A DNA stretch of 64,000 nt from Vulcanimicrobiota bacterium (GCA_963757945.1 CAVWTN010000002.1:458262-522261); one strand, 5' to 3'. Shown: positions 7,257 to 40,543, counted from the stretch's first letter. Numbers and translations are program-made. Notes: a model not told the origin generated them from the letters alone.

Positions 7257-7456
7257 GTAGGCCTCGGATCCAGGGGTGCCGGGCCGGAAAACTTCCCGGC
7301 GTTCGCACCGTCCCCTACCGCTCGAACCGCGCCGAGCGCACCTTTTCCCCCCGCGCGCGGCCGCGGGAACAGCGGCATTTTCTCTGTTAAATGGGCGTAA
7401 AGCCCTATAGGGGGCGGCCGCTCGGGCCGTATAGTAGAGATGCAAGGAGGGTGTTC

Positions 7457-8794
7457 GTGCACGCGAGCATCGCGAATGCGCAAGGATCGCGCATACAGCG
7501 CCGTACCGCCGTTATAACAACGGTCTGCTTGGTCATTGGCTGCGCGGCCCTGTTGCCGTTCGCGCACCGCACCTATCCGGCGATCCCCGGCATGCCGCCG
7601 GTCTTCATCACGTTCTCGCTGTGCCTCGCGGCGATCTCGGCGTTCGTGATCGCAACGCAGTACAAGAGCTCGCGCTCGCGCGCGCTCTTGATCCTCGCCT
7701 CGGGCTACGCGTTCATCGCGCTGATCGCCATCCCGGAACTGTTCATCGCGCTCACGCGCTCGGCCGGGCTCAACCTCGCCCCCAACGCCGGGCGCATCCT
7801 CGCGTTCGCCGCGCAGGCCGGATTCGATTTCCACGTCTGTTGGTACATCTACGCCGCGAACCGCAAGCTGAAAGTCCCGCTCGAAGGCGCCGATTTCGTT
7901 TCGACCGTCTTCTCCATGCGGCTCGTGCTCGTGACGTTGATCGTCACGACGGTCGCATTCGGGCCGTGGAAGCTCCCCGCCGGGCTCGACATCGTCGGCC
8001 CCGCGACCTTCGACAGCCTGACGCTCGCGGCGACGCTCCTCTACCGCCGCCAAGGATCGATCCTCAGCAGTTGGCTCGTCGTCGCCCTGATCGCTTCGAT
8101 CCTGGGCGAGCTCTTCACGGTCGCGAGCGGGACGCGCTTCACGCTCGGATGGCACGTCGCAAGCACGCTGCGCCTGATCGAGTACGGCGTGATCCTCGGC
8201 GCGTTCGTGACCGAAGTTTCGATCCGGTCCGGCGAACTCGCAACGCTGGCGACGATCGATCCGCTGACGGAACTCGCGAATCGCCGCCACCTCGACGCGT
8301 ACCTGGCCCGGCTCCTCTCCGACGGCCGGCGGACGACCGACACGCTCTCCCTCCTGATGATCGACATCGATCACTTCAAGCGCTTCAACGACCGCTTCGG
8401 GCACGCCGCGGGCGACCTCGCATTGCAGACGGTCGCGACGGCGCTCAAACGCAGCGTCGGCCGAAACCAGGATTTCGTGGCACGCTACGGCGGCGAAGAG
8501 TTCGTCGTGCTGCTCACCGCCGTCGATCGGCTCGGCGCGCTCGACATCGCGGAACGGATGCGGGAGCGCGTCGAAGGCATGCTGATCGCGCTCGAAAACG
8601 GCTCGCAGCACGTCACGATCTCCATTGGGATCGTCTCGGTCCGCAGCCGCGAGGGGCTCGATCCCGCCGCGCTCCTGCGCGAAGCGGACCGCGCGCTCTA
8701 TGCCGCCAAGGCACTCGGACGCAACCGCGTCCACGAAAATCGCGTCTTTCCGGCGAGCCTGCGCCGGCCGACTGAGGACGTCGCGACCGCCTGA
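7457..8794 (+). CDS. membrane-anchored diguanylate cyclase (GGDEF domain with GGEEF active site) with N-terminal multi-TM sensor region
   Basis: About 7 predicted TM helices, then a GGDEF domain ([12 protein letters not shown]…[11 protein letters not shown]). GTG at 7457 lies 6 nt after AGGAGG (7445-7450). Confidence 0.8.
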
Positions 8795-26625: not shown

Positions 26626-27495
26626 TCAGCTTCGCCGCAGCGCGAGCGCGAGCAACGACGGCGTCGTCCCGATCTTGCCGAACTCCCACAGGTCGATCGC
26701 GTCGACGGCGACCTTCGCGGCGCGCAGCAGCGGGGGGACCGCGCGGAAACGGAGGTTCCCGATCACGCGCCCGCGCCCGAGCGCGAGCACGCCGGCGCCG
26801 TAATCGTCGCCGCGCGGCACTTCGATCGCCGTCAACCCGGCAAACGCGGCGCCCTGCACGAGCCCGGGCGAATACAGGATCGCTTCCTCATCGACGAAGG
26901 CGGCGACGGCCCGCAAGCGCACGGCATCCGCGGCTACGCCGACCTCGACGATGCGCCGCCCGATCCCGCGCGCGTACGCGGCGAGCTGCTCGCGCCCATG
27001 GGCGTTGCCGCGCCGCCCCGTCGGGATTCCCCCGGCCGATGGCCGTGCTTCACTGACACCGAGGTACAGCGCTTCCGGGCCGAGCAGCACGTCGCCGCCG
27101 TCGAGCAATCCGGGCGCTTCGATCCGGCCGACGATCGGCACGCCCGCCGTCGCCAGCGCCGCTTCGACGGCCGCGAGTTCGGTTCGCCGGGCTACGTCGC
27201 TGGGCCGCATCAAGAACGCGCCGCCCGGGAAGACGACCGCGAGATCCGCGACCGCGCTCGCATTCGGCAAGCCGGGCGTTTGGTCGATCGCGATCGTTTG
27301 GACGCCGTTGTAGTGCAGCGTGCCTTCGAAGATCGCGAATTGCTCGAGCGCGCGCGCGAAGATCGTCCCCGATTCGCCCTGAACGGGCTTCGCCCGTTCG
27401 ATCGCAGCCGACGGCCGCACGAGCAGCGCCGCCGCCAAGCGTGCGCCGTCATCTTCGACAAAGGGGCCCTTGATCTCGTTCGCTATGCTGACCAC
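26626..27495 (-). CDS. amidinotransferase-superfamily protein (dimethylarginine dimethylaminohydrolase-like)
   Basis: DDAH/arginine-deiminase-fold similarity across the length. The usual C-terminal catalytic Cys appears to be replaced (…GKIGTTPSLL), so it may be non-catalytic. Confidence 0.5.
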   Translation of the reverse strand: MVSIANEIKGPFVEDDGARLAAALLVRPSAAIERAKPVQGESGTIFARALEQFAIFEGTLHYNGVQTIAIDQTPGLPNASAVADLAVVFPGGAFLMRPSDVARRTELAAVEAALATAGVPIVGRIEAPGLLDGGDVLLGPEALYLGVSEARPSAGGIPTGRRGNAHGREQLAAYARGIGRRIVEVGVAADAVRLRAVAAFVDEEAILYSPGLVQGAAFAGLTAIEVPRGDDYGAGVLALGRGRVIGNLRFRAVPPLLRAAKVAVDAIDLWEFGKIGTTPSLLALALRRS

Positions 27496-27550
27496 CCTCA
27501 GTAGTTAACGAGAACCCCCCTCGCGCCCCCTCGCCCCGTGCGCGACTCGT

Positions 27551-27952
27551 TCAGCCTGAGCTTGCCGAAGGGGTCGAAGGGTCTGCACCGATGTCGAGGG
27601 TGATTCGGCCGCTTCCGTTGCAGGTGCAGCAGGCGAGGCCGCTGCCGGTGGCGCGAGCGATTCCGGAGCCTCGGCAGTTCGGGCAGGCTTGGGTTCGCTT
27701 CGGCACGCTGTGAACGCCGCGTCCGCCGCAGGCGCTGCAGGTCAAGCGCTTTTGCGGCTGCACGGCGGTCCCGCGGCACTCACCGCAGCGCACGAATGGT
27801 GCGCGCACGAGAATCATGCCCTCGCCGTGGCAGATCTCGCAGCGCGAGAGCGGGGAAAGGACCCCGAATGGATCCTTTCCCGTCCCGCGGCAGAACGCGC
27901 ACGCGACCTCATGGTACGCGGAGTTCGGGGTCCGGTTAGGCTGGATTGCCAC
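27551..27952 (-). CDS. DnaJ-type zinc-finger protein (six CxxCxGxG motifs), gas-vesicle-cluster associated, paralog 1
   Basis: 133 aa with repeated CxxC(x)GxG motifs ([48 protein letters not shown]). Paralog of 29608..29985. Confidence 0.6.
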   Translation of the reverse strand: MAIQPNRTPNSAYHEVACAFCRGTGKDPFGVLSPLSRCEICHGEGMILVRAPFVRCGECRGTAVQPQKRLTCSACGGRGVHSVPKRTQACPNCRGSGIARATGSGLACCTCNGSGRITLDIGADPSTPSASSG

Positions 27953-27964
27953 GCACGACCTCCA

Positions 27965-28636
27965 CTACGCGAGTCGAACTTGTTGCGTTGCGCTATCCGC
28001 CACGAGGTAGGTCAGCTTCTCCAACTTCTCGACTTGGTCGAAGAGCGAGAGAGCCTCGTGGTAATGCCCCTCGTTTTCGAAGACGTGCCCGAGTTCAAGG
28101 AGCCGATCGAACGCCTCGCGCCCCTCGATGCTGCCGGGATAGCGCCGCAGGAGCCGCGTGTATCCGTCGATCGCGGTGTGGATCAGCCCTTGTTCGTCCC
28201 AGGCTTGCGCTGCGCGAAGCAAGGCCACTCGGCCCGATGCCGCCGCGGCCAACTTCTGCAACGTGTGCAGGAACGAGGAATGACGTTCCGCCAGCGCCGT
28301 GCGAATTTCATCGTCCGACGCATAGACGCTGAAGGTCCCCGCGGGGAGCAACGTAAGGCGCCGCTGTAACGCGTCGACGACCCGGCCGTGATCGAACGTT
28401 ATCCGCCCGAGCCACGCGTCATCCTGGGCCAGCGTGCGCACGCGCTCCTGCGAAAATTCGTCGAGCGGAACGGCGCTGACGAGTGCGGCCAACTCGCCAT
28501 ACTCGATCGCGGTGAGCGGCGCCGATCCGTTGACGCCGAACGTGTCATCGGGCAGGCGGCTCTGGGCATCGGTCTGCTTCGCGATCCCGTAAAGGTACCA
28601 CCCGTGGTCCGGGGGCAAGCGGTGTTTCGTCATCAC
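27965..28636 (-). CDS. GvpL/GvpF-family N-terminal domain fused to a TPR-like C-terminal region
   Basis: N-terminal ~135 aa aligns with the gvpL at 31578..32423 (GHAWYLYGIAK…YGELAALVSAVPLDEF…FSVYASDD). The C-terminus diverges into TPR-like helices (AWDEQGLIHTAIDGYTRLLRRYPGS…GHYHEALSLFDQV). Confidence 0.65.
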   Translation of the reverse strand: MMTKHRLPPDHGWYLYGIAKQTDAQSRLPDDTFGVNGSAPLTAIEYGELAALVSAVPLDEFSQERVRTLAQDDAWLGRITFDHGRVVDALQRRLTLLPAGTFSVYASDDEIRTALAERHSSFLHTLQKLAAAASGRVALLRAAQAWDEQGLIHTAIDGYTRLLRRYPGSIEGREAFDRLLELGHVFENEGHYHEALSLFDQVEKLEKLTYLVADSATQQVRLA

Positions 28637-29031
28637 CGGCTCCCTCCGCGTGCGACGCCGGCTCGCCTGCGCGTGTAGCTGCTCCAGATGCGCGCCGTCT
28701 CGCTGCGTCGGCCGTGGAGGCCGCCGAGCAGACCGCGAACCTGCGCCCGGTTCTGTGCCGTTTCTGCCTCGAGCAGCGTTCGCTGGCGCTGTGCCGTTGC
28801 CGCAAGCTCGCGGCCGAAACCCGCGAGCAGCGTGGCGACCGCCCGGCTACGGACGGTCACGTCCTCTCTGAGCGCCTCTCGCAGCGAGGCATCCTCGCGC
28901 AGGCGCTCGCGCCCCAGCAGCTCGAGCTTTTGCGCGATCGCCGCCCGTCTGGCTGCAATCTCTAGCGAGCGTTCATCGTGCGCCTGCTCCAACCGATCGG
29001 TCAGCGCGCGCACGTCCGCGACTATTGCCAT
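28633..29031 (-). CDS. predicted coiled-coil gas-vesicle-associated protein ('GvpX' paralog 1, family not recognised)
   Basis: 132 aa, helical and Arg/Glu/Ala-rich. The first ~100 aa are paralogous to 37420..38013 (MAIVADVRALTDRLEQ…). ATG at 29031; the ORF's upstream extension is junk. Immediately downstream of gvpA1. Confidence 0.5.
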   Translation of the reverse strand: MAIVADVRALTDRLEQAHDERSLEIAARRAAIAQKLELLGRERLREDASLREALREDVTVRSRAVATLLAGFGRELAATAQRQRTLLEAETAQNRAQVRGLLGGLHGRRSETARIWSSYTRRRAGVARGGSR

Positions 29032-29168
29032 GTCGATCTCCCGAATCATTGAAGAAAAACAGTGCGAGGGGGCGCCGGCGTCTTTGCCGCCGATCGCTAC
29101 GCACGACCGGCATGCAAGCCCCGGCGCCCTTCGCTCGAGCTCGATCGACGAGCTCTTTGCCGCTCGTG

Positions 29169-29399
29169 CTATGCGGCGGCCGCCTGCGGTGCGGCGACGG
29201 ATGCCGTGAGCCCGATCGCTTCGGCATACTTGAGGTAGGTTTCGACCGACGCGACGACGGCGCGGATTTCGATCGCGAGCAATTCGATGCCGACCAGCGA
29301 CACGCGCACCCATGCGTCGATGACGAGGCCCTTGTCCAAGATGCGATCGACGACTTCCACGAGGCTCGACGAGCCGATTGCCTTCTCTACTTGTGCCAT
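29169..29399 (-). CDS. gvpA: gas vesicle structural protein GvpA (copy 1)
   Basis: 76 aa: [64 protein letters not shown]… is the canonical GvpA core. Confidence 0.92.
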
Positions 29400-29494
29400 T
29401 CTCAGCCAAGCTCCCTGTGACGAATAGCGGCCTTGACGCATTGCCGAAGCCGCTGGTTGGGGTCCCATCGCCATCCTATCCGGCGCTCGAGAAC

Positions 29495-29543
29495 TCAACA
29501 ACACTCGATCGAGGTACTGCGGACTATCCGGACGGATACAAAT
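29495..29543 (-). promoter_or_regulatory. conserved upstream element of gvpA copy 1 (CTCGATCGAG palindrome + TATCCG-N2-CGGATA inverted repeat)
   Basis: About 48 bp nearly identical to 38510..38558 upstream of gvpA copy 2, while the flanking intergenic DNA diverges. Confidence 0.5.
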
Positions 29544-29607
29544 CCGTGCGCCCTTCGAACCACGCGGGGCGCACGCCGCAGCGCGGGATCGCGCCTGGCT
29601 GGCGGCG

Positions 29608-29985
29608 TTACGAAGCCGAACCGCTATGCAACGTCACTCTGCCGCTGCCGGTACAGGTGGAACACGACAGATCGATCTCGCTTTCCGGATCGACGCCCGT
29701 ACCTTTGCAAACCGGGCACGCTTGGTTGTTCTTCGAGACGCTCTGCACGCCGCGCCCTCCGCACGCACTGCACGTCAGACGCTTGTGCGGCTGCGCGCCG
29801 GTACCATGGCATTCGCCGCAGCGCACGAACGGCACGTGCACGATGTTCTTGCCGACGCCCTGGCACGTCTCGCAGCGCGAAAGGTCGGAAAGGAGCCCGA
29901 ACGGATCCTTACCCGTACCGCTACAGAATGCGCATTCGACGGCCTGTTCGCCTGGTTTCGGAACTGGATTAGGCATTGGCTCCAA
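29608..29985 (-). CDS. DnaJ-type zinc-finger protein (CxxCxGxG repeats), paralog 2
   Basis: 125 aa ([48 protein letters not shown]). About 50% identical to 27551..27952. Overlaps the gvpJ stop. Confidence 0.6.
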
Positions 29986-30280
29986 TCGCCTCCTCTACGC
30001 GTGCGAGTCTTTCTTTGAGTAAAAGGTTATCGGCCTCGAGACTTTCGGCGCGCGAAACCAGCGCCGAGTCGCGCTCCCACCAGTTGATCCCCATCTCTTT
30101 CGCCTTGTCCACCGATGCGATCAACAAGCGCACCTTGATGCTCAACAACTCCACCTGAACGAGGGAGATGGTGATGTCCCCGGCGATGACGATGCCCTTG
30201 TCGAGCACGCGCTCGAGGATGTCGGCCAAGTTCGTGGTCTGGATTGCACTGGCGACGCGCCGGTCGCTTGCGTTCTGCAT
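29969..30280 (-). CDS. gvpJ: gas vesicle protein GvpJ (GvpA-family)
   Basis: NLADILERVLDKGIVIAGDITISLVQVELLSIKVRLLIASVDKAKEMGI. RBS GGGAGAAGG upstream. Confidence 0.8.
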   Translation of the reverse strand: MQNASDRRVASAIQTTNLADILERVLDKGIVIAGDITISLVQVELLSIKVRLLIASVDKAKEMGINWWERDSALVSRAESLEADNLLLKERLARVEEAIGANA

Positions 30281-30303
30281 GTTCCCTTACCTTCTCCCTG
30301 TTA

Positions 30304-30633
30304 TCACAGGAGATTGCCCAGCGGTCCCAAGTTGAGATTCAAATCCTCGCCTTCCAGACCGAACCGTTCTTTGAGCTCGATCATCGCTTGCTCGAGGTTC
30401 ATGAACGTCTCGCCCATCCGCTCGACCTCGTCCGCCGTCACGCTCTCCGCTTCGATGCGCTTGATGGCCTGACGCTCGAGCAACTGGCGCAACAACTCGA
30501 TGATCGTGAGCACGAGCTTTGCCAGCCCTTGCTCCACGCGCTCCGGGTCGATATCGAGCCGATCCTCCGCGGCCCGCGCCGCGGACGACGGCGCGATCGT
30601 GTCGGGGAGATCGGTCGCATCATTCACGTTCAT
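30304..30633 (-). CDS. gvpK: gas vesicle protein GvpK
   Basis: 109 aa. EQGLAKLVLTIIELLRQLLERQAIKRIE…LNLNLGPLGNLL is the GvpK signature. Confidence 0.85.
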   Translation of the reverse strand: MNVNDATDLPDTIAPSSAARAAEDRLDIDPERVEQGLAKLVLTIIELLRQLLERQAIKRIEAESVTADEVERMGETFMNLEQAMIELKERFGLEGEDLNLNLGPLGNLL

Positions 30634-31409
30634 CGCTGTACCCTCGCCGCTATGCGGGCTCGCGAACGGTCCTCCGCCACGAAGCTGTACGGCGCGGACG
30701 GGCCGCTCAGCACCAGATCGAGTTCCGGGCGCTCGCTGCACAGGCTCGCAAACGCCCTGCGGAATCCCGGCACCGCGGCCGGATCCACGAGATACGCGGC
30801 GCTGCAGGCGATGCGCTCGCTCGCCAGCTCGGACCAACGCACTTCGCGCGCGTGGGGAGAGAGGCGCTCGTCGATGCCGTCCCGCGCCGCGCGGAGGCGC
30901 TCTTCGAGAATCTGCGCCTTCAAATGCACGCGCATCAGCCCGCGCAAGTAACGAGCGCCCGCACCGGAACCGCGAATGTTCGGCCCTGCAGGCAAAGCTG
31001 CCGCCGGCGCGCTTGCGCCGTCCCGCAGAACGGAAGACGTGGTCAGGATCGCCAGATCCAACTCCGCCATGGGGCCCAAGCGCGCCAAGTCCTCGTGCAA
31101 CTGCTCGCGCTGCCGTGCGAGCGTTTCGACGACGGCCGTCTCGCCGCGCAGTACCGTGCCGAACCGGGCAGGAAGCGCGGAGTTCCGCTGGCGTACCGCC
31201 TCGACGACGGCTTGGTGAGCGAAGAGATGCTTGGCCGTATGCTCCCAACGTTCCTGACTCACCGCGCCGGTGACGGCCGCAAGGCCTGCGCCGCGGACCA
31301 AAGCCAACGCCTCACCCTCCACGCCGCGCACGCCGGGCGCCAGCTCGGCCTGCGGCGGAACGATCGCGTAGACGTACAGGTATCGTTCGCTACGGTCGAG
31401 CGTTTCCAC
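30630..31409 (-). CDS. gvpF: gas vesicle protein GvpF/GvpL family
   Basis: N-terminal YLYVYAIV… and GvpF-family architecture. GTG start; ATGA-type overlap with gvpK. Confidence 0.75.
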   Translation of the reverse strand: METLDRSERYLYVYAIVPPQAELAPGVRGVEGEALALVRGAGLAAVTGAVSQERWEHTAKHLFAHQAVVEAVRQRNSALPARFGTVLRGETAVVETLARQREQLHEDLARLGPMAELDLAILTTSSVLRDGASAPAAALPAGPNIRGSGAGARYLRGLMRVHLKAQILEERLRAARDGIDERLSPHAREVRWSELASERIACSAAYLVDPAAVPGFRRAFASLCSERPELDLVLSGPSAPYSFVAEDRSRARIAARVQR

Positions 31410-31581
31410 GGTATTGCGGCTCCCCTACGCACAGCGCAATCACGAGTTGCAGGTCGAGGAAGAGCAGGTCGACGCCGGCGACCGAGATCGTCAGATTCCC
31501 CGCCAGCACGAGGCCCCGATCGAGGACCCGGTCGAGCAGATCGAGGAGGGTGACCTCGTCCGGCTCTGCAACGGCGCTCAT
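31390..31581 (-). CDS. gvpS: small GvpA-family gas vesicle protein (GvpS/GvpM-like)
   Basis: 63 aa. TLLDLLDRVLDRGLVLAGNLTISVAGVDLLFLDLQLVIA is a GvpA-fold core. Confidence 0.7.
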   Translation of the reverse strand: MSAVAEPDEVTLLDLLDRVLDRGLVLAGNLTISVAGVDLLFLDLQLVIALCVGEPQYRGNARP

Positions 31582-32423
31582 CGGTGCACGCTCCCTTGCT
31601 CTTCGATGGATTCAGGATCGACGAAATTGTACGGCGGCCACGGCCCGCTATATTCGACCTTGATCTCCGGGCGCAGTTGACCGATGCGCTCCACCATCTC
31701 CAAGAACGCACCTTGCTGCGCGCGCCGGACCAAGAATGTCCGGCGCAGGATCGCGAGCGTCGCTTCGCCGTCCGTGAGGCGCAGGGGCGAGAGCTCCCCG
31801 CCGGCGACCGCGAGCGAACGCAGTTCCGCGTACGCCTGGTCGCTCACGCCTGCGATCGTGTCTTCGACGTGACGCTTCAAGAGGGTCGCGATTTGGCGAT
31901 CCACGAGATAGGCGCGGCCGGCACTCGACGACGCCCGCTTCTCCAGCAACTGCGCGATCTGGGGGACGGAGCGGGAAAGGCTCTTGCGCAGGAGCGTCCG
32001 ATCGAACGTCAGCCGCACCTCGAACTCGTCGCAGCCCTCCAACCGTTGCAGGATGCGTAAGATCGAGGACTGACTTTCCGCAAGCGCCGCAAGAATGTCG
32101 TCATCGCTCGCATAGACGCTGAACAACCGCGCGGGCACGATGCCCAGGCGCTGCTGCAGCCCTTCGACGACCCGTTCGTGCTCGGAGGCGACCTGCCCGA
32201 GCCACGTATCGTCTTGCGCGAGCGAGCGCACGCGCTCCGCTTCGAAATCGGCAAGCGGAACGGCGCTCACGAGTGCGCTTAACTCCCCATAACTGATCGC
32301 GCCGACGAGCGTCGCGCCGTCCACGCCGAGGATCGCGAGCGGCAGCCGGCTGCGAACATCGCTCTCCTTCGCGATTCCGTACAGATACCACGCATGCCCG
32401 GGCGGCAATACTCGATCGATCAT
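31578..32423 (-). CDS. gvpL: gas vesicle protein GvpL/GvpF family
   Basis: 282 aa, WYLYGIAKE…GELSALVSAVPL. Start at ATG 32423, which overlaps the gvpG stop by 1 nt. Confidence 0.8.
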   Translation of the reverse strand: MIDRVLPPGHAWYLYGIAKESDVRSRLPLAILGVDGATLVGAISYGELSALVSAVPLADFEAERVRSLAQDDTWLGQVASEHERVVEGLQQRLGIVPARLFSVYASDDDILAALAESQSSILRILQRLEGCDEFEVRLTFDRTLLRKSLSRSVPQIAQLLEKRASSSAGRAYLVDRQIATLLKRHVEDTIAGVSDQAYAELRSLAVAGGELSPLRLTDGEATLAILRRTFLVRRAQQGAFLEMVERIGQLRPEIKVEYSGPWPPYNFVDPESIEEQGSVHR

Positions 32424-32671
32424 CAGAGCGACGCCTTGTATTCGCGAATCTCGTTCAAGCGCTGCAAGATGCTCGCTTCCGCCTCGCTGTACTCCGCTTC
32501 CGAGATCTCGCCCAAATCGAGTTGCAAGCTCAGCCGCATCAGCGCGCTCTCGAGGCGGCCTTCGTCGTACATCTCCGCGTCGACCGCCTCTTTGATCTTC
32601 TCGAACACAAAGAGCAGCCCGCGGGCCGGTCCCGCAACCGGCAGACACACGAGATCGGTGACCAATCCCAT
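32423..32671 (-). CDS. gvpG: gas vesicle protein GvpG
   Basis: 83 aa. MGLVTDLVCLPVAGPARGLLFVFEKIKEAVDAEMYDE…LDLGEISEAEYSEAEASIL is GvpG-like. RBS AAGGAGAG. Confidence 0.7.
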   Translation of the reverse strand: MGLVTDLVCLPVAGPARGLLFVFEKIKEAVDAEMYDEGRLESALMRLSLQLDLGEISEAEYSEAEASILQRLNEIREYKASL

Positions 32672-32673
32672 CG

Positions 32674-33477
32674 CTAGCTCTCCTTTTCCCAGGCGAGATC
32701 GACGAAATCGAACGGCGGCAGAGGCCCGACGTACTTCAGAATCAGCCGTTCGGCATTCCGCTCGGCGATCGCGTTGACGGCCGCGTCGAAGCGCGCTTCG
32801 CTTGCTTTCTCCACGAGAAACGCCGCGTTGACGATCATCATGTCCGTGAGCAGGGCGTTCGTCTTCATCTCCACGCACAGCGGTGCAAGCTCGCTCTCGA
32901 TCTCCTCGGCGTCGCGCGTGCGCAGCAGGGCCATGGCCTGCTCCACCAATTGCCCGAGCCGGATCTGCTCGAAGTGGCCCGACCCCGATACCATCTCGTC
33001 ACGCAACGAGCGGATGTCGTCCCGCGCGGCCACGATCTCGGCGAACACGCGCTCCCGTTTCCAAAGCACCTTGAGCCCGAGCTCGACTCGCCCGCGGACA
33101 TGCGCCAAGATCGCGAGCAGCTCGTCGCGCCGCGCTTCAAGAACCTGCTCGCCGACACGCGCGTCGCTCGCGGAGATCAATCCGAATTGCGCGGGGATCA
33201 CCTCGCTGAACGTGAGGATCTCTTCGAGAACGCGCTGATGCGTCAGGAGGTTCTCGCGGCTAACGTCGTAGCGAGCTGCCGGAGAGTCGCTGACGATCGC
33301 CGCGAGCTCGCCGGCCCGGACGGCGCGCACCGCGTCGCCGCGCCCGCCGACCGCGGCCGCGGCGAACGCACCGCGCCCTTCGAGCGCGGCTGCGGGAACG
33401 ATGCCGTAGACATAAACGCCGGCCGCGCCCGCGGACGTTCCCGCCTCGCTCGCGGCGAGCTTCTCGTCACTCACCAT
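32674..33477 (-). CDS. gvpF: gas vesicle protein GvpF
   Basis: 267 aa. GVYVYGIVPAAA…LAAIVSDSP… is GvpF-family. Start at ATG 33477. Confidence 0.8.
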   Translation of the reverse strand: MVSDEKLAASEAGTSAGAAGVYVYGIVPAAALEGRGAFAAAAVGGRGDAVRAVRAGELAAIVSDSPAARYDVSRENLLTHQRVLEEILTFSEVIPAQFGLISASDARVGEQVLEARRDELLAILAHVRGRVELGLKVLWKRERVFAEIVAARDDIRSLRDEMVSGSGHFEQIRLGQLVEQAMALLRTRDAEEIESELAPLCVEMKTNALLTDMMIVNAAFLVEKASEARFDAAVNAIAERNAERLILKYVGPLPPFDFVDLAWEKES

Positions 33478-35659
33478 GGGCCGCCTCTTCCGCCTGGAGG
33501 GCCGCGACGTGCGCTTCGCGCGCCTGCACGAACGCGTTCTCGAAGTGACGCCGCTCGATGACGAACGGCGTGAACGCCGCCTGGGGTTCGCGCTCGATCG
33601 ATTCGCGGATCGCGAGCATCGCCGCACGCCGGCAAAGCCCCTCGAGATCCGCGCCGACGAGGCCCTCGGTGCTCGCTGCGATGCTCTTGAGGTCCACGTC
33701 TGCACTCAACTGCCGGCCGCGCGTGTGCACGCCGAGGATCGACAGGCGCGCAGCCCGGTCCGGGGCGTGCAACGGGAGAATCACGTCGAAGCGCCCGGCG
33801 CGCAACAGCGCGGGATCGATCATGTCCGGGCGATTGGTCGCGCCGAGAATGACGACGCCGCGCAATTCCTCGATGCCGTCGAGTTCGGCGAGGAACTGCC
33901 CCACGACACGTTCCGCAACGTGCCCCCCGCCGCTCCCGTCGCCGCGGCGCGGCACGAGCGCGTCGATCTCGTCGAAGAAGACCATGCACGGCGCGGCTTG
34001 CCTGGCCTTGTGGAAGACTTCGCGGATGCCTTTCTCCGACTCGCCGACCCACTTCGAGATCAGCGCGGGCCCCTTGACCGAGATGAAATTGATGCCGCTC
34101 TCCGCCGCGGCCGCCCTCGCCACGAGCGTCTTTCCCGTTCCCGGCGGCCCGGTCAGGAGCAACCCTTTCGGTGGATTCACCTTGGCAAACGCAAAGCGGT
34201 CGGCATACGCGAGCGGCCAGGCGACCATCTCACGAATGACTTCCTTCACCTCGTCGAGCCCGCCGACGTCGTCCCACTTCACGTCCGGCAGTTCGGTGAA
34301 GACCTCGCGAATGGCCGAGGGCTCCGTCTCCGTGAGCGCATCCGTGAAGTTCCGCATCGAGATTTCGAGCTTGAGCAGCTCCTCGTAGGGAAGCTGCGGG
34401 TTCTTGAAATCGATCGTCGGGAGAGCGTTTCGCAAGCAGCTCATCGCGGCTTCGCGGCACACCCCGGCGAGATCGGCGCCGACGAAGCCATGCGTGATCG
34501 CCGCCAGCTTCTCGAGGTCCACATCCTTCGCGAGCGGCATGCCGCGCGTGTGAATCTGCAAGATCTCCAGACGCCCCACCTTGTCGGGGACGAGGACCGA
34601 GATTTCGCGATCGAAGCGCCCCGGCCGGCGCAGCGCCGGGTCGATGCTATCCGGAATGTTCGTCGCGCCGATGACGACGACGTGCCCGCGGGACTCGAGG
34701 CCGTCCATCAGGGTCAGGAGCTGCGCGACCACGCGCTTCTCGACTTCCCCTTGGACCGCTTCGCGCTTGGGCGCGATCGCGTCGATCTCGTCGATGAAGA
34801 CGATGCTCGGCGCGTGGTTCTGCGCCTCATCGAAGAGCTTGCGCAGATTTGCTTCCGACTCGCCGTAGAACTTGTGGATGATCTCCGGACCGTTGACGTG
34901 CACGAAGTGCGCGGAGGTTTCGGCTGCGACCGCTCGCGCGATCAGCGTCTTGCCGCACCCGGGCGGCCCGTAGAGCAAAACTCCCTTGGGCGGCTCGATG
35001 CCCAGACGCGCGAAGACCTCCGGGTAGCGCATCGGCAACTCGATCATCTCGCGAATCCGCGCGATCTCTCTCCCCAGGCCACCCACGTCCTCGTAGGACA
35101 CTCCCGGCGCGCGGCCTCCCAGGGTGGCATCTCCGGCGATGCGCACGACGGTGGCTCGATCGACGTAGACGGGACCGGACGGGCTCGTGTCCTTGACGAT
35201 GAAATCGACCGCCCGCGAACCGAACAGCGCGACGCGCACGCGATCGCCCACCACGAGCGGCACGTTCTCGAGCAGCGTGCCGATGTAGCGCGAATCTTGC
35301 GCGCCGAGCGCCTTGGCGGTGACGACCGGCGTGAGCGCGAGACTCGCCGCGCTGTGGTTGCCCGCCTTCTTGAGTTGCACGCTATCGTCGAGCGCCGCCT
35401 GCGCGTTCTCCCGGATGATCCCGTCGATCTGGACCAGACCCTTGCCGCGCTCGCCGGGGAACGCCGGCATGATCCGCGCCGTGGTGTTGCGTTTGCCTGC
35501 GATCTCCACGATGTCGCCGATCGCGCAACCGAGACGCTCGATATCCGCCGGATCGACGCGCGCGATCGCCCGGCCGACGTCTTTCGGAAGCGCCTCCGCA
35601 ACGCGCAGCGCGAGCGCCGCCCGCTCGCCTACCGCGCCGCTTGCTCCGGGTTGACTCAT
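33467..35659 (-). CDS. CDC48/VAT-like double-ring AAA+ ATPase (N-domain + D1 + D2) embedded in the gvp operon
   Basis: 730 aa. CDC48-type N-domain, two Walker A sites (GPPGCGKT, GPPGTGKT), two Walker B sites (IVFIDEID, MVFFDEID), and a second-region-of-homology with Arg fingers. Confidence 0.85.
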   Translation of the reverse strand: MSQPGASGAVGERAALALRVAEALPKDVGRAIARVDPADIERLGCAIGDIVEIAGKRNTTARIMPAFPGERGKGLVQIDGIIRENAQAALDDSVQLKKAGNHSAASLALTPVVTAKALGAQDSRYIGTLLENVPLVVGDRVRVALFGSRAVDFIVKDTSPSGPVYVDRATVVRIAGDATLGGRAPGVSYEDVGGLGREIARIREMIELPMRYPEVFARLGIEPPKGVLLYGPPGCGKTLIARAVAAETSAHFVHVNGPEIIHKFYGESEANLRKLFDEAQNHAPSIVFIDEIDAIAPKREAVQGEVEKRVVAQLLTLMDGLESRGHVVVIGATNIPDSIDPALRRPGRFDREISVLVPDKVGRLEILQIHTRGMPLAKDVDLEKLAAITHGFVGADLAGVCREAAMSCLRNALPTIDFKNPQLPYEELLKLEISMRNFTDALTETEPSAIREVFTELPDVKWDDVGGLDEVKEVIREMVAWPLAYADRFAFAKVNPPKGLLLTGPPGTGKTLVARAAAAESGINFISVKGPALISKWVGESEKGIREVFHKARQAAPCMVFFDEIDALVPRRGDGSGGGHVAERVVGQFLAELDGIEELRGVVILGATNRPDMIDPALLRAGRFDVILPLHAPDRAARLSILGVHTRGRQLSADVDLKSIAASTEGLVGADLEGLCRRAAMLAIRESIEREPQAAFTPFVIERRHFENAFVQAREAHVAALQAEEAAHGE

Positions 35660-36156
35660 TTCTTCTTCTCGAGGCGAACCTCGAGAATGGCATTCTTAAA
35701 GCTTCGCTGCAGGTTCGACGCATCGACCTGCGCCGGCAACAGGAGTTCCTTGGAGTATTTCCGTTCGCGACCGGCGGCCTCGAGCGTCAGGATGTCGCCC
35801 TCAACTTCGACCTTGATGTCTTCGTCCGTGACGCCCGGCAGCTCCGCCACGACCAAGACATGATCGGCTTCGTCGAAAATGTCGACGAGCGGCTCGCGCA
35901 CCTCGGAAACTTCGGGCCCGTGTGCCGTGGGGCGGATGTTGCCGAACTGCTCGATGACCGGAACGCCGCCGAGCGACTTGATCGACACGCCGTAGAGGCC
36001 GCGCAATTCACGCGGACCGCTCAGCTCGCCGCTGCGCCGGATTTCCTTGCCCTCGCCGAGCTCACCGAGCAGATCGATGAAACCGCCCAGCCCTTTGAGG
36101 ATCTCGCCGAGCCCGAGATCCGTGCGCGGATCGCTTGTCTTCCGTTTGCTGCTCAT
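35656..36156 (-). CDS. gvpH: Hsp20/alpha-crystallin family protein (GvpH-like)
   Basis: 166 aa with an alpha-crystallin domain (ADHVLVVAELPGVTDEDIKVEVEGDILTLEAAG). ATGA overlap with the CDC48-like gene. Confidence 0.75.
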   Translation of the reverse strand: MSSKRKTSDPRTDLGLGEILKGLGGFIDLLGELGEGKEIRRSGELSGPRELRGLYGVSIKSLGGVPVIEQFGNIRPTAHGPEVSEVREPLVDIFDEADHVLVVAELPGVTDEDIKVEVEGDILTLEAAGRERKYSKELLLPAQVDASNLQRSFKNAILEVRLEKKK

Positions 36157-36159
36157 CTT

Positions 36160-36459
36160 CTAGTACTCCAACGTCAGCGCATGGCGGTCACTCGCGGCAG
36201 GCGGGGCTTCGATGCCGCCGGCGATCGGGCGCGCGATCGGCCGTGATTCGAGGTCGGCGATCTGCCCGTCGACCTCGCGCAAACGCGCCTCGACGGTTTG
36301 CTGTCTTTTCCGCGCGAGCTCGACTTCGCGCACGAGCCGCCGGCGTTCGCCCGCCAGCCGCTGGAGTTGCAATGCACGGCTCACTTCGCTGCGCAACCCG
36401 ATCGACGGGGGCAGCCCGCGAAACGACCGCACGTCGTGCATGGTGCTAGGTTGCCCCAT
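36160..36459 (-). CDS. small predicted coiled-coil protein in the gvp operon (unknown)
   Basis: 99-aa ORF tightly packed between gvpN (2-nt gap) and the Hsp20 gene, with RBS GGAG. Helical Arg/Glu-rich composition. It could be spurious in this high-GC DNA. Confidence 0.4.
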   Translation of the reverse strand: MGQPSTMHDVRSFRGLPPSIGLRSEVSRALQLQRLAGERRRLVREVELARKRQQTVEARLREVDGQIADLESRPIARPIAGGIEAPPAASDRHALTLEY

Positions 36460-36461
36460 GG

Positions 36462-37391
36462 TTACTTCCGCCTTTTCGGACTGCCGGTTTCCCGGATGCG
36501 CCGCCGCGACTTTTCAGATCGATCGGAGCCGCCGCTGACGAGCACATCAGCGCACGTCTGCTCGAACGCCGGCTCTCCGGGAACCGCGCGTCCACCGGAG
36601 ATCGACAAGACCTTGGCGATCATGATGGAGCGGCGCAGCGTGGACCCTACGTGGCCGGACTCATCCCTCCAGTGATGCACGACGTCGACGATCCGTTCGG
36701 CATCCTCGAGGGGAACGCCGGACTTCGCTCGAGTGATCTCGATCTCCGTATCGCGATCGAAGCCGCTCATGTCGATCGTGATCATCCGGTCGAGCAGTGC
36801 ATCCTGCGCGCCGTGCACGCCCACGTACTCGTCGGGATTCGACGTGAAGATCGCGGAGAACGCGGGGTGAACCTTCAGATACTGCACGCCGTTCCTGCTC
36901 GTGGGCAACATGAGCAGCTTCTCTTCCAACACGGCGAGCAGGACGTTGTTCGCCTCCGCGCGCGAGCGCGAGAACTCGTCGTAAAGCAGCGTCAGCCCTT
37001 CGCGGCAGGCGACCGTCAAACGATTGTCGACCCACTGTTGCGTCACGTCCTCCTCGGTCTTGAGGACCGAGTGGACGAAGTTGTCGACGACCCTGCGGCG
37101 GCGATAGCCGGATCGCCCGCCGACAAGGTCCGATGTGCCGAACTCGTCGTCACCGCACAGCAACGCCAGCGGCCGGCCCAGGTGATGCGCGACGTGCAGC
37201 GCCAAGGTCGTTTTGCCCGAGCCGGACGGTCCGCGGAAATGCACCGGATAGCCGGCCCGGATATACGTGAGGGCCCGTGCGGTCAGGGCCCGGATGAAGT
37301 CGGTCTCAACGAAATCCGCGCGTGGCCGGCTCGTGATGACCGAACTCCCTCCGACCGCAGGCGCGCTACCGTTCAACGTGACGCTCGCCAA
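36462..37391 (-). CDS. gvpN: gas vesicle protein GvpN (MoxR-like AAA+ ATPase)
   Basis: Walker A HFRGPSGSGKTTLA, Walker B LLYDEFSR. TTG start at 37391 preceded by AGGAGG at 5-nt spacing. Confidence 0.85.
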   Translation of the reverse strand: MASVTLNGSAPAVGGSSVITSRPRADFVETDFIRALTARALTYIRAGYPVHFRGPSGSGKTTLALHVAHHLGRPLALLCGDDEFGTSDLVGGRSGYRRRRVVDNFVHSVLKTEEDVTQQWVDNRLTVACREGLTLLYDEFSRSRAEANNVLLAVLEEKLLMLPTSRNGVQYLKVHPAFSAIFTSNPDEYVGVHGAQDALLDRMITIDMSGFDRDTEIEITRAKSGVPLEDAERIVDVVHHWRDESGHVGSTLRRSIMIAKVLSISGGRAVPGEPAFEQTCADVLVSGGSDRSEKSRRRIRETGSPKRRK

Positions 37392-37419
37392 GGCGCCCTC
37401 CTCTTCTTATCGAGTGCGA

Positions 37420-38013
37420 TCAAGTTGCAAAGTAAATTTCGCGAACGTCGTCCTTACGGGCGCGGTTCTGCTCGATGAGTCCATCGATCGCATGACCGAC
37501 TCCCGCGCGCGATGCGTGGAAGTGACGCTCGATGTCGTGGATCTTCACGCCGTTTGGATGGCCGGCGAGGAACGTGAAGACCTTGTCCTGCAGAGCGGTT
37601 GAATGATGCTGGACGCTTGGTTTGGGGCCATCTTGCGTCACCGCTCTGAAGGCGTAGTAATTGCCCCAGATCCCGGCCGTCTCCACGCGATTGACGTGGA
37701 AGGCGTCAAGGAGCCGGCTGACCTGTGCCCGGTTCTCCGCCGCGTCGGCCTTGAGCTGCGCGTTCTGCTTCTTCGCCGTCGCAGCAAGCTCCCGATCGAA
37801 ACCGGCAAGCTGATCGGCGACCGACCGGCTACGGGCGACGACCTCGGTATGGAGCGCCGCTCGCAGCTCCGTCTGTTCTTGAGTCCGCTCGCGTTGGAAG
37901 CGCGAAAGCTTCTGCGAAATCGCCTGTCGTCTCGCCGCGATCTCTTGGAACCGCTCTTCGTGCGATTGCTCCAACCGATCCGTCAGTGCGCGCACGTCTG
38001 CAACTATTGCCAT
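37420..38013 (-). CDS. predicted coiled-coil gas-vesicle-associated protein ('GvpX' paralog 2) with extra C-terminal winged-helix-like domain
   Basis: 198 aa. The N-terminal ~110 aa are paralogous to 28633..29031 (MAIVADVRALTDRLEQSHEER…). C-terminal ~70 aa extension (…VFTFLAGHPNGVKIHDIERHFHASRAGVGHAIDGLIEQN…). RBS GGGGGAGA. Confidence 0.5.
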   Translation of the reverse strand: MAIVADVRALTDRLEQSHEERFQEIAARRQAISQKLSRFQRERTQEQTELRAALHTEVVARSRSVADQLAGFDRELAATAKKQNAQLKADAAENRAQVSRLLDAFHVNRVETAGIWGNYYAFRAVTQDGPKPSVQHHSTALQDKVFTFLAGHPNGVKIHDIERHFHASRAGVGHAIDGLIEQNRARKDDVREIYFAT

Positions 38014-38151
38014 CTGGATCTCCCCCGCTTGTTGCGGCGTTGCGAGAGGGGCGCCGGCGGCCTTCACGCTGCTCTCTGGGCGCGAGCAGCGTGTAGACCC
38101 CAGCGCCCTCCCTCAAGCTCGATATAGTCGAGCCTATCTCTACCGCTCGCG

Positions 38152-38382
38152 CTACGCGGCGACGGGCTGGGGTGCTGCGACCGATGCCGTAAGCCCGATC
38201 GCTTCGGCATACTTGAGATACGTCTCGACCGAGGCCACGACGGCGCGGATCTCGATAGCGAGCAACTCGATGCCGACGAGCGACACGCGCACCCATGCAT
38301 CGATGACAAGGCCCTTGTCCAGGATACGATCGACGACTTCCACGAGGCTCGATGAGCCGATTGCCTTCTCTACTTGTGCCAT
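38152..38382 (-). CDS. gvpA: gas vesicle structural protein GvpA (copy 2)
   Basis: 76 aa. Identical to copy 1 except for 2 C-terminal residues (…APQPVAA vs …APQAAAA); DNA about 88% identical, mostly synonymous changes. Confidence 0.92.
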
Positions 38383-38478
38383 TATTTAACGAAGCTCCCT
38401 GTGACAAATGGCGGCCAAGACACACTGCCGAGGCCACTGCTTGGGATTCGAGAAACCATGAACATCAGGTTTCCCTCC

Positions 38479-38558
38479 CTACGATGCATCGTAGTCGTAC
38501 GGCAGCGGCACAACAACACTCGATCGAGGTAGCGCGAGCTATCCGAACGGATACAATC
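38479..38558 (-). promoter_or_regulatory. gvpA copy-2 upstream region: 16-bp perfect palindrome CTACGATGCATCGTAG (38479..38494) plus conserved CTCGATCGAG / TATCCG-N2-CGGATA element (38510..38558)
   Basis: The conserved element is shared with 29495..29543. The 16-bp palindrome is unique to copy 2. It lies between the RR stop and gvpA2. Confidence 0.5.
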
Positions 38559-38564
38559 ATGCCG

Positions 38565-39221
38565 TCACTCCACCATTCCGACGCGCATCGCGAGGACCGC
38601 GACGTGCGTGCGATCGCGCGCGGCGAATTTTCCGATGATGCTCTGAACGTGCTTCTTGACGGTCACTTCAGCAAGACCGAGCTCGTCGCCGATGGCGCGA
38701 TTCGTCTTTCCGTCGACCAAAAGATCGAGCACCATTCGCTCGCGCTCGGTGAGATCGATCCCGGCCTTCTTCGCGGCGTTCGCCGGCGCCAGCGCCTCGT
38801 CCGCAAGCGCGCGCCGGATGACCGCATCTCTCACGACGATGTTGCCTTGACTGACTGCGGTGACGGTATGATACAAGAGATCGCGCGAGCAATCTTTGAG
38901 CAAATAGCCTGCCGCCCCGGCACACACCGCGCTCGTCACGAACGCATCGTCGCCGTAGCTGCTCATCATGATGACGGCGGTATCCCCGAAGGCTTCCTTG
39001 ATGCGACGCGCCGCATCCAAGCCGCCCATGCCCGGCATGCGCACGTCCATCAACACGACGTTCGGCCGCAGCCGTTCCACGCTCGCGATCGCGCTCTTTC
39101 CATCCTCCGCCTCGCCGACGACCTCGATCGCAGGATACGTCTCGAGCATGGCCCGCACGCCCTCGCGAACGACGAGATGGTCATCGACCAGCAGGACGGA
39201 GATGCGCGGCGTTGCGCTCAT
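38565..39221 (-). CDS. LuxR/NarL-family response regulator (REC + HTH)
   Basis: 219 aa. Receiver domain LLVDDH…VVLMDVRMPGMGG; C-terminal LuxR HTH (LTERERMVLDLLVDGKTNRAIGDELGLAEVTVKKH). Start at ATG 39221. Confidence 0.85.
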   Translation of the reverse strand: MSATPRISVLLVDDHLVVREGVRAMLETYPAIEVVGEAEDGKSAIASVERLRPNVVLMDVRMPGMGGLDAARRIKEAFGDTAVIMMSSYGDDAFVTSAVCAGAAGYLLKDCSRDLLYHTVTAVSQGNIVVRDAVIRRALADEALAPANAAKKAGIDLTERERMVLDLLVDGKTNRAIGDELGLAEVTVKKHVQSIIGKFAARDRTHVAVLAMRVGMVE

Positions 39222-39988
39222 CGCAAATGCTCCCGGGATTCGCTCGCCACGAACGAAGGCGCGCCGAGCGCGAGCGACGCCGGGACGATCACGGTCGTCG
39301 CGGTGCCCTTGCCTGGGGCGCTTTCCACGGTCAACGTGCCGTCGAGGAGTTCCGCACGCTTGGTCATGCTCAGCACGCCGAAATGCCGCGGTGCACGCTC
39401 TCCGATCAGCGTGGCGACATCGAAACCGGCGCCGTCGTCGAGCACGGTCCATTGGATCGTATCGCCTACGCGACGGAGCGTGGCCACGATCCGCGATGCA
39501 TTTGCATGTTTGACGACGTTTGTAATCGCCTCGTGAACGATGCGATAGAGCGCCGTCTCCACTTCCTTGGGAAAGTGCAGCGGAGCGAGTTCGTAATGAA
39601 CCGCCAGACCGTGGCTCTCGCGCAGCTCGTCCAGTTCGTGCTGGATTGTCGACACGAGCCCGACGTCGTCGAGCGCCGCCGGCCGCAGGCAGGCGACGAC
39701 CTCTCTGGCCTCCTGAAGTGCCTTGCGAACGCAACTCCCGGCACGATTCACGCTCGCCCGAACGTCGTCCGGCAAATTCGATCGTGCAACCACGACTTGA
39801 AGCTGCTGGAAGGCCGCGGTCAGCGTTTGCGTGAGACCATCGTGGATGTCCAAGCAAATTCGCTCGCGCTCCCGTTCCTGCGCCTCAAGCGTCTTCTGCA
39901 ACAGATAACGAACGCGTTGCTCCTGCTCTTGCAAAGCAGTGCGCAAGCCTGCGTCGTCGGCCTTCCTCTGCGCACTTATCTCAGACAT
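39218..39988 (-). CDS. sensor histidine kinase, HisKA_3 + HATPase_c, no TM or recognisable sensor domain
   Basis: 256 aa. H-box LDIHDGLTQTL about 45 aa from the N-terminus; ATPase motifs (ITNVVKHANA, DDGAGF, GLLSM). 4-bp overlap with the RR gene. Confidence 0.8.
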   Translation of the reverse strand: MSEISAQRKADDAGLRTALQEQEQRVRYLLQKTLEAQERERERICLDIHDGLTQTLTAAFQQLQVVVARSNLPDDVRASVNRAGSCVRKALQEAREVVACLRPAALDDVGLVSTIQHELDELRESHGLAVHYELAPLHFPKEVETALYRIVHEAITNVVKHANASRIVATLRRVGDTIQWTVLDDGAGFDVATLIGERAPRHFGVLSMTKRAELLDGTLTVESAPGKGTATTVIVPASLALGAPSFVASESREHLR

Positions 39989-40543
39989 ACGGGGCGAGCC
40001 TCGGAATCGCCCCGAATCTTAAGCCCGTTAATGATTCGGGCGTGGTGCACTGCCTGGCCTGATGGAACGTCGACATAGGCATTGCCGAACTCGGTACGGT
40101 GATCGTACTGAACTCGGCGGAAGTCCTTACCAGCAACGAGCATCGACATGCACATTTCAGCCTATTACTCGTTTTGCCCCGGAATGTGCACGGCAAACCC
40201 GCTTGTATGCGGCCTTCCCCGCCTGCGCCGCGACGCGCGTACGGCGGCACGCGACGTGCGCGCGGAATCCGTGCGCGAGCGCGGTGCTATTGCGGTGCGC
40301 GGCGAGAAAGCCACCAGCAGCAACCCTTGCGAATGAAGTGATCGGAAACGGCGGACGCCGATTCGTGTCTGGGAATCACCATGATACCAAACGGCGTTGA
40401 AAATACAGTCCCATGTATGGGGGATAATCCGGCGACCAGACGCGCAGTCACGCGAACGCCGCGGGTTCGGCTAGCCGTACTCGAGCAAAGATACGTGCGG
40501 TGCGCGTGCTGCTTGGGGAGCTATCCGAGCGCAGCCAAGTGCT
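39989..40543. other. 555-bp non-coding region with locally lower GC, upstream of the HK-RR-gvp genes
   Basis: No protein-like ORF on either strand. GC drops to roughly 50-55% around 40100-40450. Stem-loop GGGGCGA-9nt-TCGCCCC at 39990..40012. Confidence 0.4.

Follow-up and report, generated by a model that had tools for sequence, protein, structure and literature searches.

Two diverged gvpA genes for nearly the same gas-vesicle shell protein in one locus of a Vulcanimicrobiota bacterium

The DNA examined here, 64,000 nucleotides (nt) of a Vulcanimicrobiota bacterium (GCA_963757945.1 CAVWTN010000002.1:458262-522261; hereafter the window), carries a gas-vesicle (gvp) gene cluster on its minus strand, running from about 38556 down to 27551, with two genes for the major shell protein GvpA (Table 1). 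The first, gvpA2, opens a complete cluster in the order gvpA2, X2, gvpN, a 99-amino-acid (aa) open reading frame (ORF), Hsp20/GvpH, a CDC48-like AAA+ protein, GvpF, GvpG, GvpL, a GvpS-like protein, GvpF, GvpK, GvpJ, and ZnF2. Directly after ZnF2 comes a much shorter module 2 of four genes, gvpA1, X1, F' (a fusion of a GvpL N-terminal part and a TPR segment, GvpL-N::TPR), and ZnF1, without N, F, G, K, J, or S. The starts of the two gvpA genes are 8,983 bp apart, with 13 genes between them.

Both genes encode GvpA rather than a GvpJ, GvpS, or GvpM paralogue, as judged by length (76 aa), first-gene position, and best-matching model. GvpA2 matches Pfam PF00741 (Gas_vesicle) at 61.1 bits (curated cut-off 25) and NCBIfam NF006874 (GvpA) at 124.1 bits (curated cut-off 100), and the GvpA model is its best by a wide interval (124 bits, vs. 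47 for GvpJ and 34 for GvpM). GvpA1 is covered by the same family matches, since both matched stretches fall within residues that the two proteins share. GvpJ (103 aa) and a GvpS-like protein (63 aa) have genes of their own at other places in the cluster.

As the initial annotation had proposed, the two proteins differ only at their last residues (PQAAAA in GvpA1, PQPVAA in GvpA2): residues 1-72 are identical, and the only changes are A73P and A74V. The annotation had put DNA identity at about 88% by eye; on alignment the divergence is indeed mostly synonymous (20 synonymous and 2 non-synonymous changes), but the exact identity is slightly higher, with 22 of 231 positions differing (90.5%). 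The two DNA strings it quoted in illustration are found on the plus strand at 29232 and 38215. By the Nei-Gojobori method (NG86), the pair has a synonymous divergence (dS) of 0.44 and a non-synonymous divergence (dN) of 0.012, from 20 differences over 60.2 synonymous sites and 2 over 167.8 non-synonymous sites. The resulting dN/dS of 0.027 bears out the proposed strong purifying selection, and at 90.5% identity and a dS of 0.44 the copies are not "essentially identical," the outcome named in advance as contradicting an old duplication.

Nor is the second copy an assembly artefact or a collapsed repeat, a possibility ruled out by independently made metagenome assemblies, in which each copy is again found between flanks of its own (identity to the window: L001 and L003, 100%; L016, 99.3%; L002, 97.9%). 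These and the other L-numbered related loci were obtained by exact-protein look-ups only; scans of genome contigs (with the X2 protein and a promoter DNA pattern) and of metagenome contigs (with the promoter pattern and an X alignment) yielded no further relatives. Syntenic orthologues of gvpA2 are present in L002, L004, L005, L007, and L012.

Table 1. Features of the two gvpA modules and their surroundings. Positions are those of the window except for X family members of other loci, which are numbered within the locus named.
Feature	Position	Strand	Remarks
HisKA_3 histidine kinase	39218-39988	-	Pfam; upstream of gvpA2
NarL/LuxR-type response regulator (GerE-type)	38565-39221	-	Pfam; directly upstream of gvpA2
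gvpA2 upstream region	38383..38556	-	putative promoter, assigned from conservation
7-2-7 palindrome, gvpA2	38539-38554	-	GTATCCG-TT-CGGATAG
Block TACCTCGATCGAGTGT, gvpA2	38516-38531	-	holds palindrome CTCGATCGAG
Putative -35, gvpA2	38511-38516	-	TTGTTG; 17-nt spacer to -10
Putative -10, gvpA2	38488-38493	-	TACGAT
Leader segment of ~30 nt	38458-38487	-	after putative -10; gvpA2/orthologue type only
Leader hairpin, gvpA2	38409-38439	-
Ribosome-binding site, gvpA2	38394-38399	-	GGGAG
gvpA2	38152..38382	-	major gas-vesicle shell protein; first gene of complete cluster
Long GC-rich hairpin between gvpA2 and X2	38049..38108	-	spacer fold z -5.8
X2	37420..38013	-	197 aa; predicted helix and C-terminal domain resembling winged helix
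Rest of complete cluster, gvpN to ZnF2	29608..37391	-	Pfam and NCBIfam; order as in L007 and L012
Structured spacer after ZnF2 stop	29542..29607	-	fold of 29530-29612: -44.1 kcal/mol, z -2.8
gvpA1 upstream region	29400..29541	-	putative promoter, assigned from conservation
7-2-7 palindrome, gvpA1	29524-29539	-
Block TACCTCGATCGAGTGT, gvpA1	29501-29516	-	holds palindrome CTCGATCGAG
Putative -35, gvpA1	29496-29501	-	TTGTTG; 17-nt spacer to -10
Putative -10, gvpA1	29473-29478	-	TAGGAT
Leader hairpin, gvpA1	29425-29455	-
Ribosome-binding site, gvpA1	29410-29415	-	GGGAG
gvpA1	29169..29399	-	second copy; first gene of reduced module 2
Hairpin between gvpA1 and X1	29070..29129	-	homologous to that after gvpA2; spacer fold z -4.4; 73% identical to gvpA2 spacer
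X1	28633..29031	-	132 aa; X2 paralogue without C-terminal domain
F'	27965..28636	-	223 aa; GvpL N-terminal half (~aa 1-131) fused to TPR segment
ZnF1	27551..27952	-	133 aa; Pfam PF00684; last gene of module 2
X family member, L004	7550-8368
X family member, L005	6489-7133
X family member, L007	4076-4903
X family member, L012	943-1950
X family member, L014	6001-7038
X family member, L017	344-1249

Homology between the two modules is not confined to gvpA. At a constant offset of 8982-8984 bp, two blocks upstream of the genes are 83% and 89% identical, the gvpA coding sequences 90%, the gvpA-X spacers 73%, and the X genes 70-81% (all at the DNA level). Further downstream, F' pairs with the N-terminal half of GvpL (31578-32423) and ZnF1 with ZnF2 (59% aa identity). 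Within F', Pfam places a GvpL_GvpF domain at residues 12-133 and TPR at 138-206. This TPR segment is the sole copy in the window; the main cluster has no TPR gene at the corresponding place (~30578-30678).

The origin of this arrangement can be read against L007, a 61-kb contig with ~76-81% DNA identity to the window. There the cluster is present only once: gvpA, X, and ZnF each occur a single time, a 90-aa TPR protein is encoded by a separate gene between GvpF and GvpK, and immediately beyond the cluster lies the flanking gene known from the window. Module 2 is collinear with this cluster piece by piece, starting with promoter, gvpA, and X (N-terminal part); then GvpL, of which aa 1-131 (gene at L007 10001-10846) match window 28633-28241; then TPR, of which residues 12-90 (gene at L007 11797-12069) match window 28246-28010 and nowhere else in the window; and finally ZnF, where ZnF1 and the only ZnF of L007 run into one and the same downstream flank. 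Because its pieces stand in the L007 order, module 2 is best read as a tandem duplicate of the whole cluster, reduced by deletions, and to judge from this comparison the two copies have undergone complementary losses.

The simplest history would then start from an ancestral single cluster in the order promoter, gvpA, hairpin, X, N, 99-aa ORF, Hsp20, CDC48, F, G, L, S, F, TPR, K, J, ZnF. Tandem duplication of all of it, from the gvpA promoter through the zinc-finger gene, would have been followed by loss of the small TPR gene from an otherwise complete upstream copy, and by deletions reducing the downstream copy to gvpA1, X1 (its C-terminal domain lost), the GvpL(1-131)::TPR fusion, and ZnF1. 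Module 2 is also found in three other loci: in L016 (99.3% identical) as gvpA1, X1, and F' after GvpK, GvpJ, and ZnF2; in L011 as F' and ZnF1; and in L006 as the promoter, X1 (88% identical), and F' after ZnF2.

Synonymous divergence between the co-duplicated genes (dS 0.84 for X, 0.93 for GvpL/F', and 1.11-1.16 for ZnF) is like that between the window and its orthologues in L004, L005, or L007 (0.66-0.97), in keeping with the proposal of an ancient, not a recent, duplication. In neighbor-joining trees built from X, from ZnF, and from the N-terminal part of GvpL, the paralogue split is about as deep as the split of the L004/L007 lineage, and later than that of L012. "Ancient" is a justified description, with an age, as estimated from a few relatives, comparable to the split from those sharing ~76% nucleotide identity.

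One feature of gvpA itself might seem at odds with this age. The proportion of synonymous differences (pS) between gvpA1 and gvpA2 is 0.33, below the 0.51-0.58 of the co-duplicated genes (Fisher p = 0.003), as would be expected if the copies had undergone gene conversion in the past, or if gvpA1 had been copied into module 2 at a later date. The gvpA synonymous deficit is also found between orthologues, however, where gvpA diverges at 0.5-0.8x the synonymous level of neighboring genes; the low paralogue dS is thus attributable to a slow gvpA synonymous rate. The differences between the copies are evenly spread, and an identical-codon run test found no conversion tract (longest run 9 codons, P = 0.74). 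Finally, the copies pair by orthology between strains: window gvpA1 differs from that of L016 at 1 position, and window gvpA2 from that of L002 at 8, with the distance between gvpA1 and gvpA2 unchanged at 22-26 (23-26 in L016/L002). On these three grounds (orthologue calibration, run test, and second strain), gene conversion was rejected as the cause of the low dS. The two genes evolve independently under strong protein constraint: among seven gvpA sequences of this lineage, residues 1-70 vary at position 3 only.

The strain comparison showed a further peculiarity of gvpA2. Between L002 (16-460) and window 38382-37940, from strains 97.9% identical, gvpA2 and the spacer that follows account for 28 of 36 differences. 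Synonymous differences number 8 in gvpA2, as against 6 over the ~300 synonymous sites that X2 and gvpN offer (Fisher p = 6e-4), and the differences in this region are mostly C/G-to-T and unique to L002. This could stem from local recombination, from mutation linked to transcription, or from a short metagenome contig in which strains are mixed.

The other observation that might suggest a younger gvpA1 comes from L006 (1-1096), a contig 79-85% identical to the window. Its sequence aligns with window 29846-29419 and then jumps to 29046-28352, so that the leader is joined straight to the X1 ribosome-binding site. The absent 372 nt (window 29418-29047) comprise the gvpA1 ribosome-binding site and coding sequence and the spacer hairpin. 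This could be read as the state before gvpA1 was inserted. However, the L006 leader and promoter are homologous to the gvpA leaders of all other loci, and the gvpA-X spacer is likewise homologous in both modules and all orthologues, which makes a 372-nt deletion the best reading of the junction. Taken with the orthologue, run-test, and strain evidence above, this makes concerted evolution or a later arrival of gvpA1 highly improbable.

If gvpA1 has been deleted in L006, it might also be a redundant leftover in the course of being lost, with module 2 kept only for its TPR segment, found nowhere else in the window, and its accessory genes. L006 fits such a view, in that it keeps the promoter, X1, and F' but no gvpA1. 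In the present lineage, by comparison, 20 synonymous vs. 2 non-synonymous changes accumulated over a long time argue that gvpA1 is under selection; its start codon and ribosome-binding site are intact, and L016 retains the gene with a single difference. We therefore consider a gene on its way out very unlikely here, while noting L006 as a caveat to any strong selection to keep both copies.

That each gvpA heads its own sub-module, as initially annotated, is borne out by the upstream sequences: each has its own conserved promoter-like region, also kept in five related loci. Apart from the ~30-nt leader segment, the upstream elements listed in Table 1 are conserved at both gvpA copies, at their L004, L005, L007, and L012 orthologues, and in module 2 of L006. 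They include, at both promoters, a 7-2-7 inverted repeat of the general form GTATCCG-NN-CGGATAG (a perfect palindrome in L006), and both palindromic motifs are unique to the two gvpA loci within the 64 kb, allowing one mismatch at most. Between the paralogues, the upstream blocks are 83-89% identical, while synonymous sites of the co-duplicated genes are only ~45-50% identical; the blocks are therefore constrained. The one consistent difference lies in the leaders: those of the gvpA1 type (window and L006) lack ~30 nt just after the putative -10, a segment kept in gvpA2 and all single-copy orthologues.

Two other leader features were considered and set aside. Shuffled sequences fold as well as the leader hairpin (z 0.24), in which there is also little covariation; the hairpin was dropped as a supported RNA structure, and stands as a conserved sequence block only. 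A 27-codon upstream ORF in the gvpA2 leader (38382-38465, minus strand) has a GGGAGGG box in front and a TAA stop overlapping the gvpA2 ATG, and a similar peptide can be read from an open frame in L005. As a conserved gene it was rejected, the frame being broken in L007 and L012 and in a different phase in the gvpA1 leader; it probably has no function. Across 27000-40500, Rfam gave no match to a known RNA family in either leaders or spacers.

Candidates for regulators lie directly upstream of gvpA2, where a HisKA_3 histidine kinase and a NarL-type response regulator are encoded; the pair has the same position in L001, L004, L005, and L007. From this position they are candidate regulators of both gvpA promoters, by way of the inverted repeats. 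NarL-type operators consist of inverted heptamers 2 bp apart, to which a NarL/LuxR-family response regulator binds; the repeats here have this geometry, with a half-site that differs from the NarL consensus.

A second class of conserved element is the hairpin that follows each gvpA. In the gvpA2-X2 spacer, an outer stem GGGCGCYGG/CCGGCGCCC is conserved in 7 of 7 related loci, with a few compensated pairs in the inner stem. The gvpA1 hairpin is followed by UGUUUUUCUUC, a U-rich tract found after the hairpin at gvpA1 only. These hairpins probably stabilize the gvpA transcript or partly terminate it; for haloarchaea, stabilizing secondary structure in gvpA mRNA has been suggested (PMC4390858). 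The structured spacer after the ZnF2 stop could mark the end of the main-operon transcript, though a terminator consensus scan found no canonical U-tract terminator at 29542-29607.

The initial annotation had suggested that two structural-gene promoters allow differential regulation, in the manner of p-vac and c-vac of Halobacterium salinarum. Extended to function, this would mean that the modules serve different conditions or make two kinds of vesicle, one with GvpA1 and a short X1, the other with GvpA2 and a long X2. Several differences could be enlisted: the ~30-nt leader segment missing from the gvpA1 type, with the same deletion in L006; the U-rich tract; X proteins only 60% identical and of different domain content; and GvpA proteins differing only in a C-terminal tail which, in haloarchaeal GvpA, is at the vesicle exterior (PMC4390858). 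Expression of p-vac and c-vac does yield vesicles of different shape at different growth phases (PMC4390858). The promoters themselves speak against it, with identical copies of the two palindromic blocks, equally spaced from the putative -35 and -10 boxes at each, which suggests co-regulation instead. Module 2, with just four genes and none of the assembly genes N, F, G, K, J, and S, cannot make vesicles alone; GvpA residues 1-72 are identical; and L006 has the module but no gvpA1. On balance, such specialization is unlikely, and the suggested parallel in regulation has little backing in the sequence.

The gene following gvpA in each module, here called X, deserves separate mention. X has no Pfam, NCBIfam, or PDB-sequence match above threshold. 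AlphaFold2 predicts X2 to form a single continuous helix of 125 residues (pLDDT >90), followed by a low-confidence C-terminal domain with sub-threshold matches to the winged-helix families MarR_2, IclR, EutK_C, and RPA_C. This domain is usual in X and absent from X1; the X1-X2 pair has a dN/dS of 0.40. A word-indexed search found five clusters among 5.8 billion proteins, and a profile search 203 representatives (E <=0.001). Members range from 132 to 345 aa in length by way of internal repeats of ~50-66 residues, the number of which varies between relatives, and X adjoins gvpA or gvpN in 8 of 8 loci examined. X is an uncharacterized helical-repeat family found in gvp clusters.

In known systems, a comparable position is held by GvpC, an outer-surface stiffening protein built of 33-residue repeats (PMC7204071). 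X resembles it in being encoded directly after gvpA, hydrophilic, and predicted to form long helical repeats of varying number. It differs in having no match to the GvpC repeat family (Pfam Gas_vesicle_C; X1 has no Pfam match at all, and X2 only the sub-threshold one to MarR_2), in repeats of ~50-66 rather than 33 residues, and in the extra winged-helix-like C-terminal domain of the X2 type. By analogy, X may be a non-homologous GvpC counterpart in this type of cluster. A bolder proposal would make module 2 a sub-functionalized partner of the main cluster, with X as a new GvpC analogue, the ratio of X1 to X2 tuning vesicle width or strength, and the DNA-binding-like C-terminal domain of X2 feeding the assembly state back to the two palindromic operators. 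It could build on the sole TPR segment (in GvpL-N::TPR), on the GvpA tail variant with its short X1, and on one promoter in two copies with different leaders; we regard it as quite unlikely.

Several other parts of the cluster fall outside the textbook gvp set: the CDC48-like double-AAA+ ATPase (33467-35659), ZnF2 (29608-29985), ZnF1 (27551-27952), and the ~99-aa ORF (36160-36459), all on the minus strand. ZnF1 and ZnF2 are DnaJ-type zinc-finger proteins (CXXCXGXG); in L014, GvpF is fused to a DnaJ domain. The CDC48-like ATPase recurs in L007, L012, and L014, and the ~99-aa ORF in these three and L005, without any family match for the latter. In L007 the CDC48-like gene (6675-8564) is split into four called ORFs, which could reflect assembly frameshift errors or a pseudogene. 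Long plus-strand ORFs run antisense to real genes in 27000-41000 (e.g., 33476-35863, 795 aa, opposite the CDC48-like gene); they are the usual by-product of 65-70% G+C, and give no evidence of genes.

The observed sequence relationships, selection pattern, collinearity with L007, and motif conservation can be joined in a single explanation, to which we give a probability of about 0.7. After whole-cluster tandem duplication, deletions in the downstream copy, and TPR loss in the upstream one, both gvpA genes would have evolved independently under very strong purifying selection at the protein level, which would account for their still encoding the same shell subunit bar two residues in the C-terminal tail. 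Both would be switched on together by the same regulator or regulators, probably the adjacent NarL-type two-component system. In addition to contributing GvpA dosage, gvpA1 would bring a promoter providing a separate transcription start for the distal X1, F', and ZnF1; since the module-2 promoter is kept in L006 although gvpA1 is gone, it would be expected to drive these genes. The hairpins after gvpA would keep its mRNA in excess over that of downstream genes.

Some points weigh against this explanation. The loss of ~30 nt from the gvpA1 leader, together with an X1 lacking the C-terminal domain, makes some functional or regulatory difference between the modules likely. Provided that the single 1.1-kb contig of L006 is correctly assembled, at least one lineage can do without gvpA1. 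Branches around the duplication are weakly supported in the trees (bootstrap 31-67), and L007 may either have lost module 2 or never have had it. A sigma-70 consensus scan called neither gvpA promoter, and the proposed -35/-10 pairs match only 7 of 12 consensus positions; as consensus scans called neither promoter and no terminator, it is conservation on which the promoter proposal is founded. The link from the response regulator to the palindromes is one that we infer.

More than one gvpA per cluster has long been known, and the core finding changes no picture in this respect. Calothrix has two copies, Microcystis three, and Anabaena flos-aquae five to seven (PMC7204071; PMC9501494), while methanogens have three to four identical ones (PMC9501494); such copies are usually put down to dosage, the protein being the most abundant component (PMC7204071; PMC9501494). 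The present locus is similar in that it holds more than one gene for a major shell protein of (nearly) identical sequence. Whereas copies in those arrays are adjacent and often identical, however, here they are not head-to-tail or near-identical in DNA (90.5%) but 8,983 bp apart, 9.5% diverged, and provided with their own promoter regions, and the second sits within what appears to be the degraded duplicate of an entire cluster.

The p-vac and c-vac clusters of H. salinarum (gvp1 and gvp2) are two complete 14-gene sets on different replicons, under GvpD/GvpE control and producing vesicles of different shape (PMC4390858). Like them, the present locus has, in one genome, two paralogous gvpA genes for slightly different proteins, each heading a gvpA-led unit. 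Unlike them, it does not hold two complete gvp sets: its second unit is a four-gene stretch in tandem with the first, within one locus and with shared operator motifs, and there are no GvpD/E homologues. The Bacillus megaterium cluster, gvpAPQBRNFGLSKJTU, carries both gvpA and gvpB (PMC9501494), and is similar in having two GvpA-type genes in one co-oriented cluster with other genes between them. The intervening genes differ (P and Q in B. megaterium), and a second copy at the head of a decayed cluster duplicate is not reported there.

What the locus offers is a clear worked example of how a second gvpA may arise and persist, by tandem duplication and complementary losses, without homogenization; the history of whole-cluster duplication and complementary decay is unusually easy to read here. 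The remnant kept the TPR segment and a duplicated promoter that would now serve module 2, while the assembly genes survive only in the full copy. For the engineering of gas-vesicle reporters, it supplies two natural near-identical GvpA variants that differ in the tail only, and an uncharacterized X family possibly in the GvpC role for this cluster type. The palindromes, together with the adjacent kinase and NarL-type regulator, are a candidate for dedicated two-component control of gas-vesicle formation.

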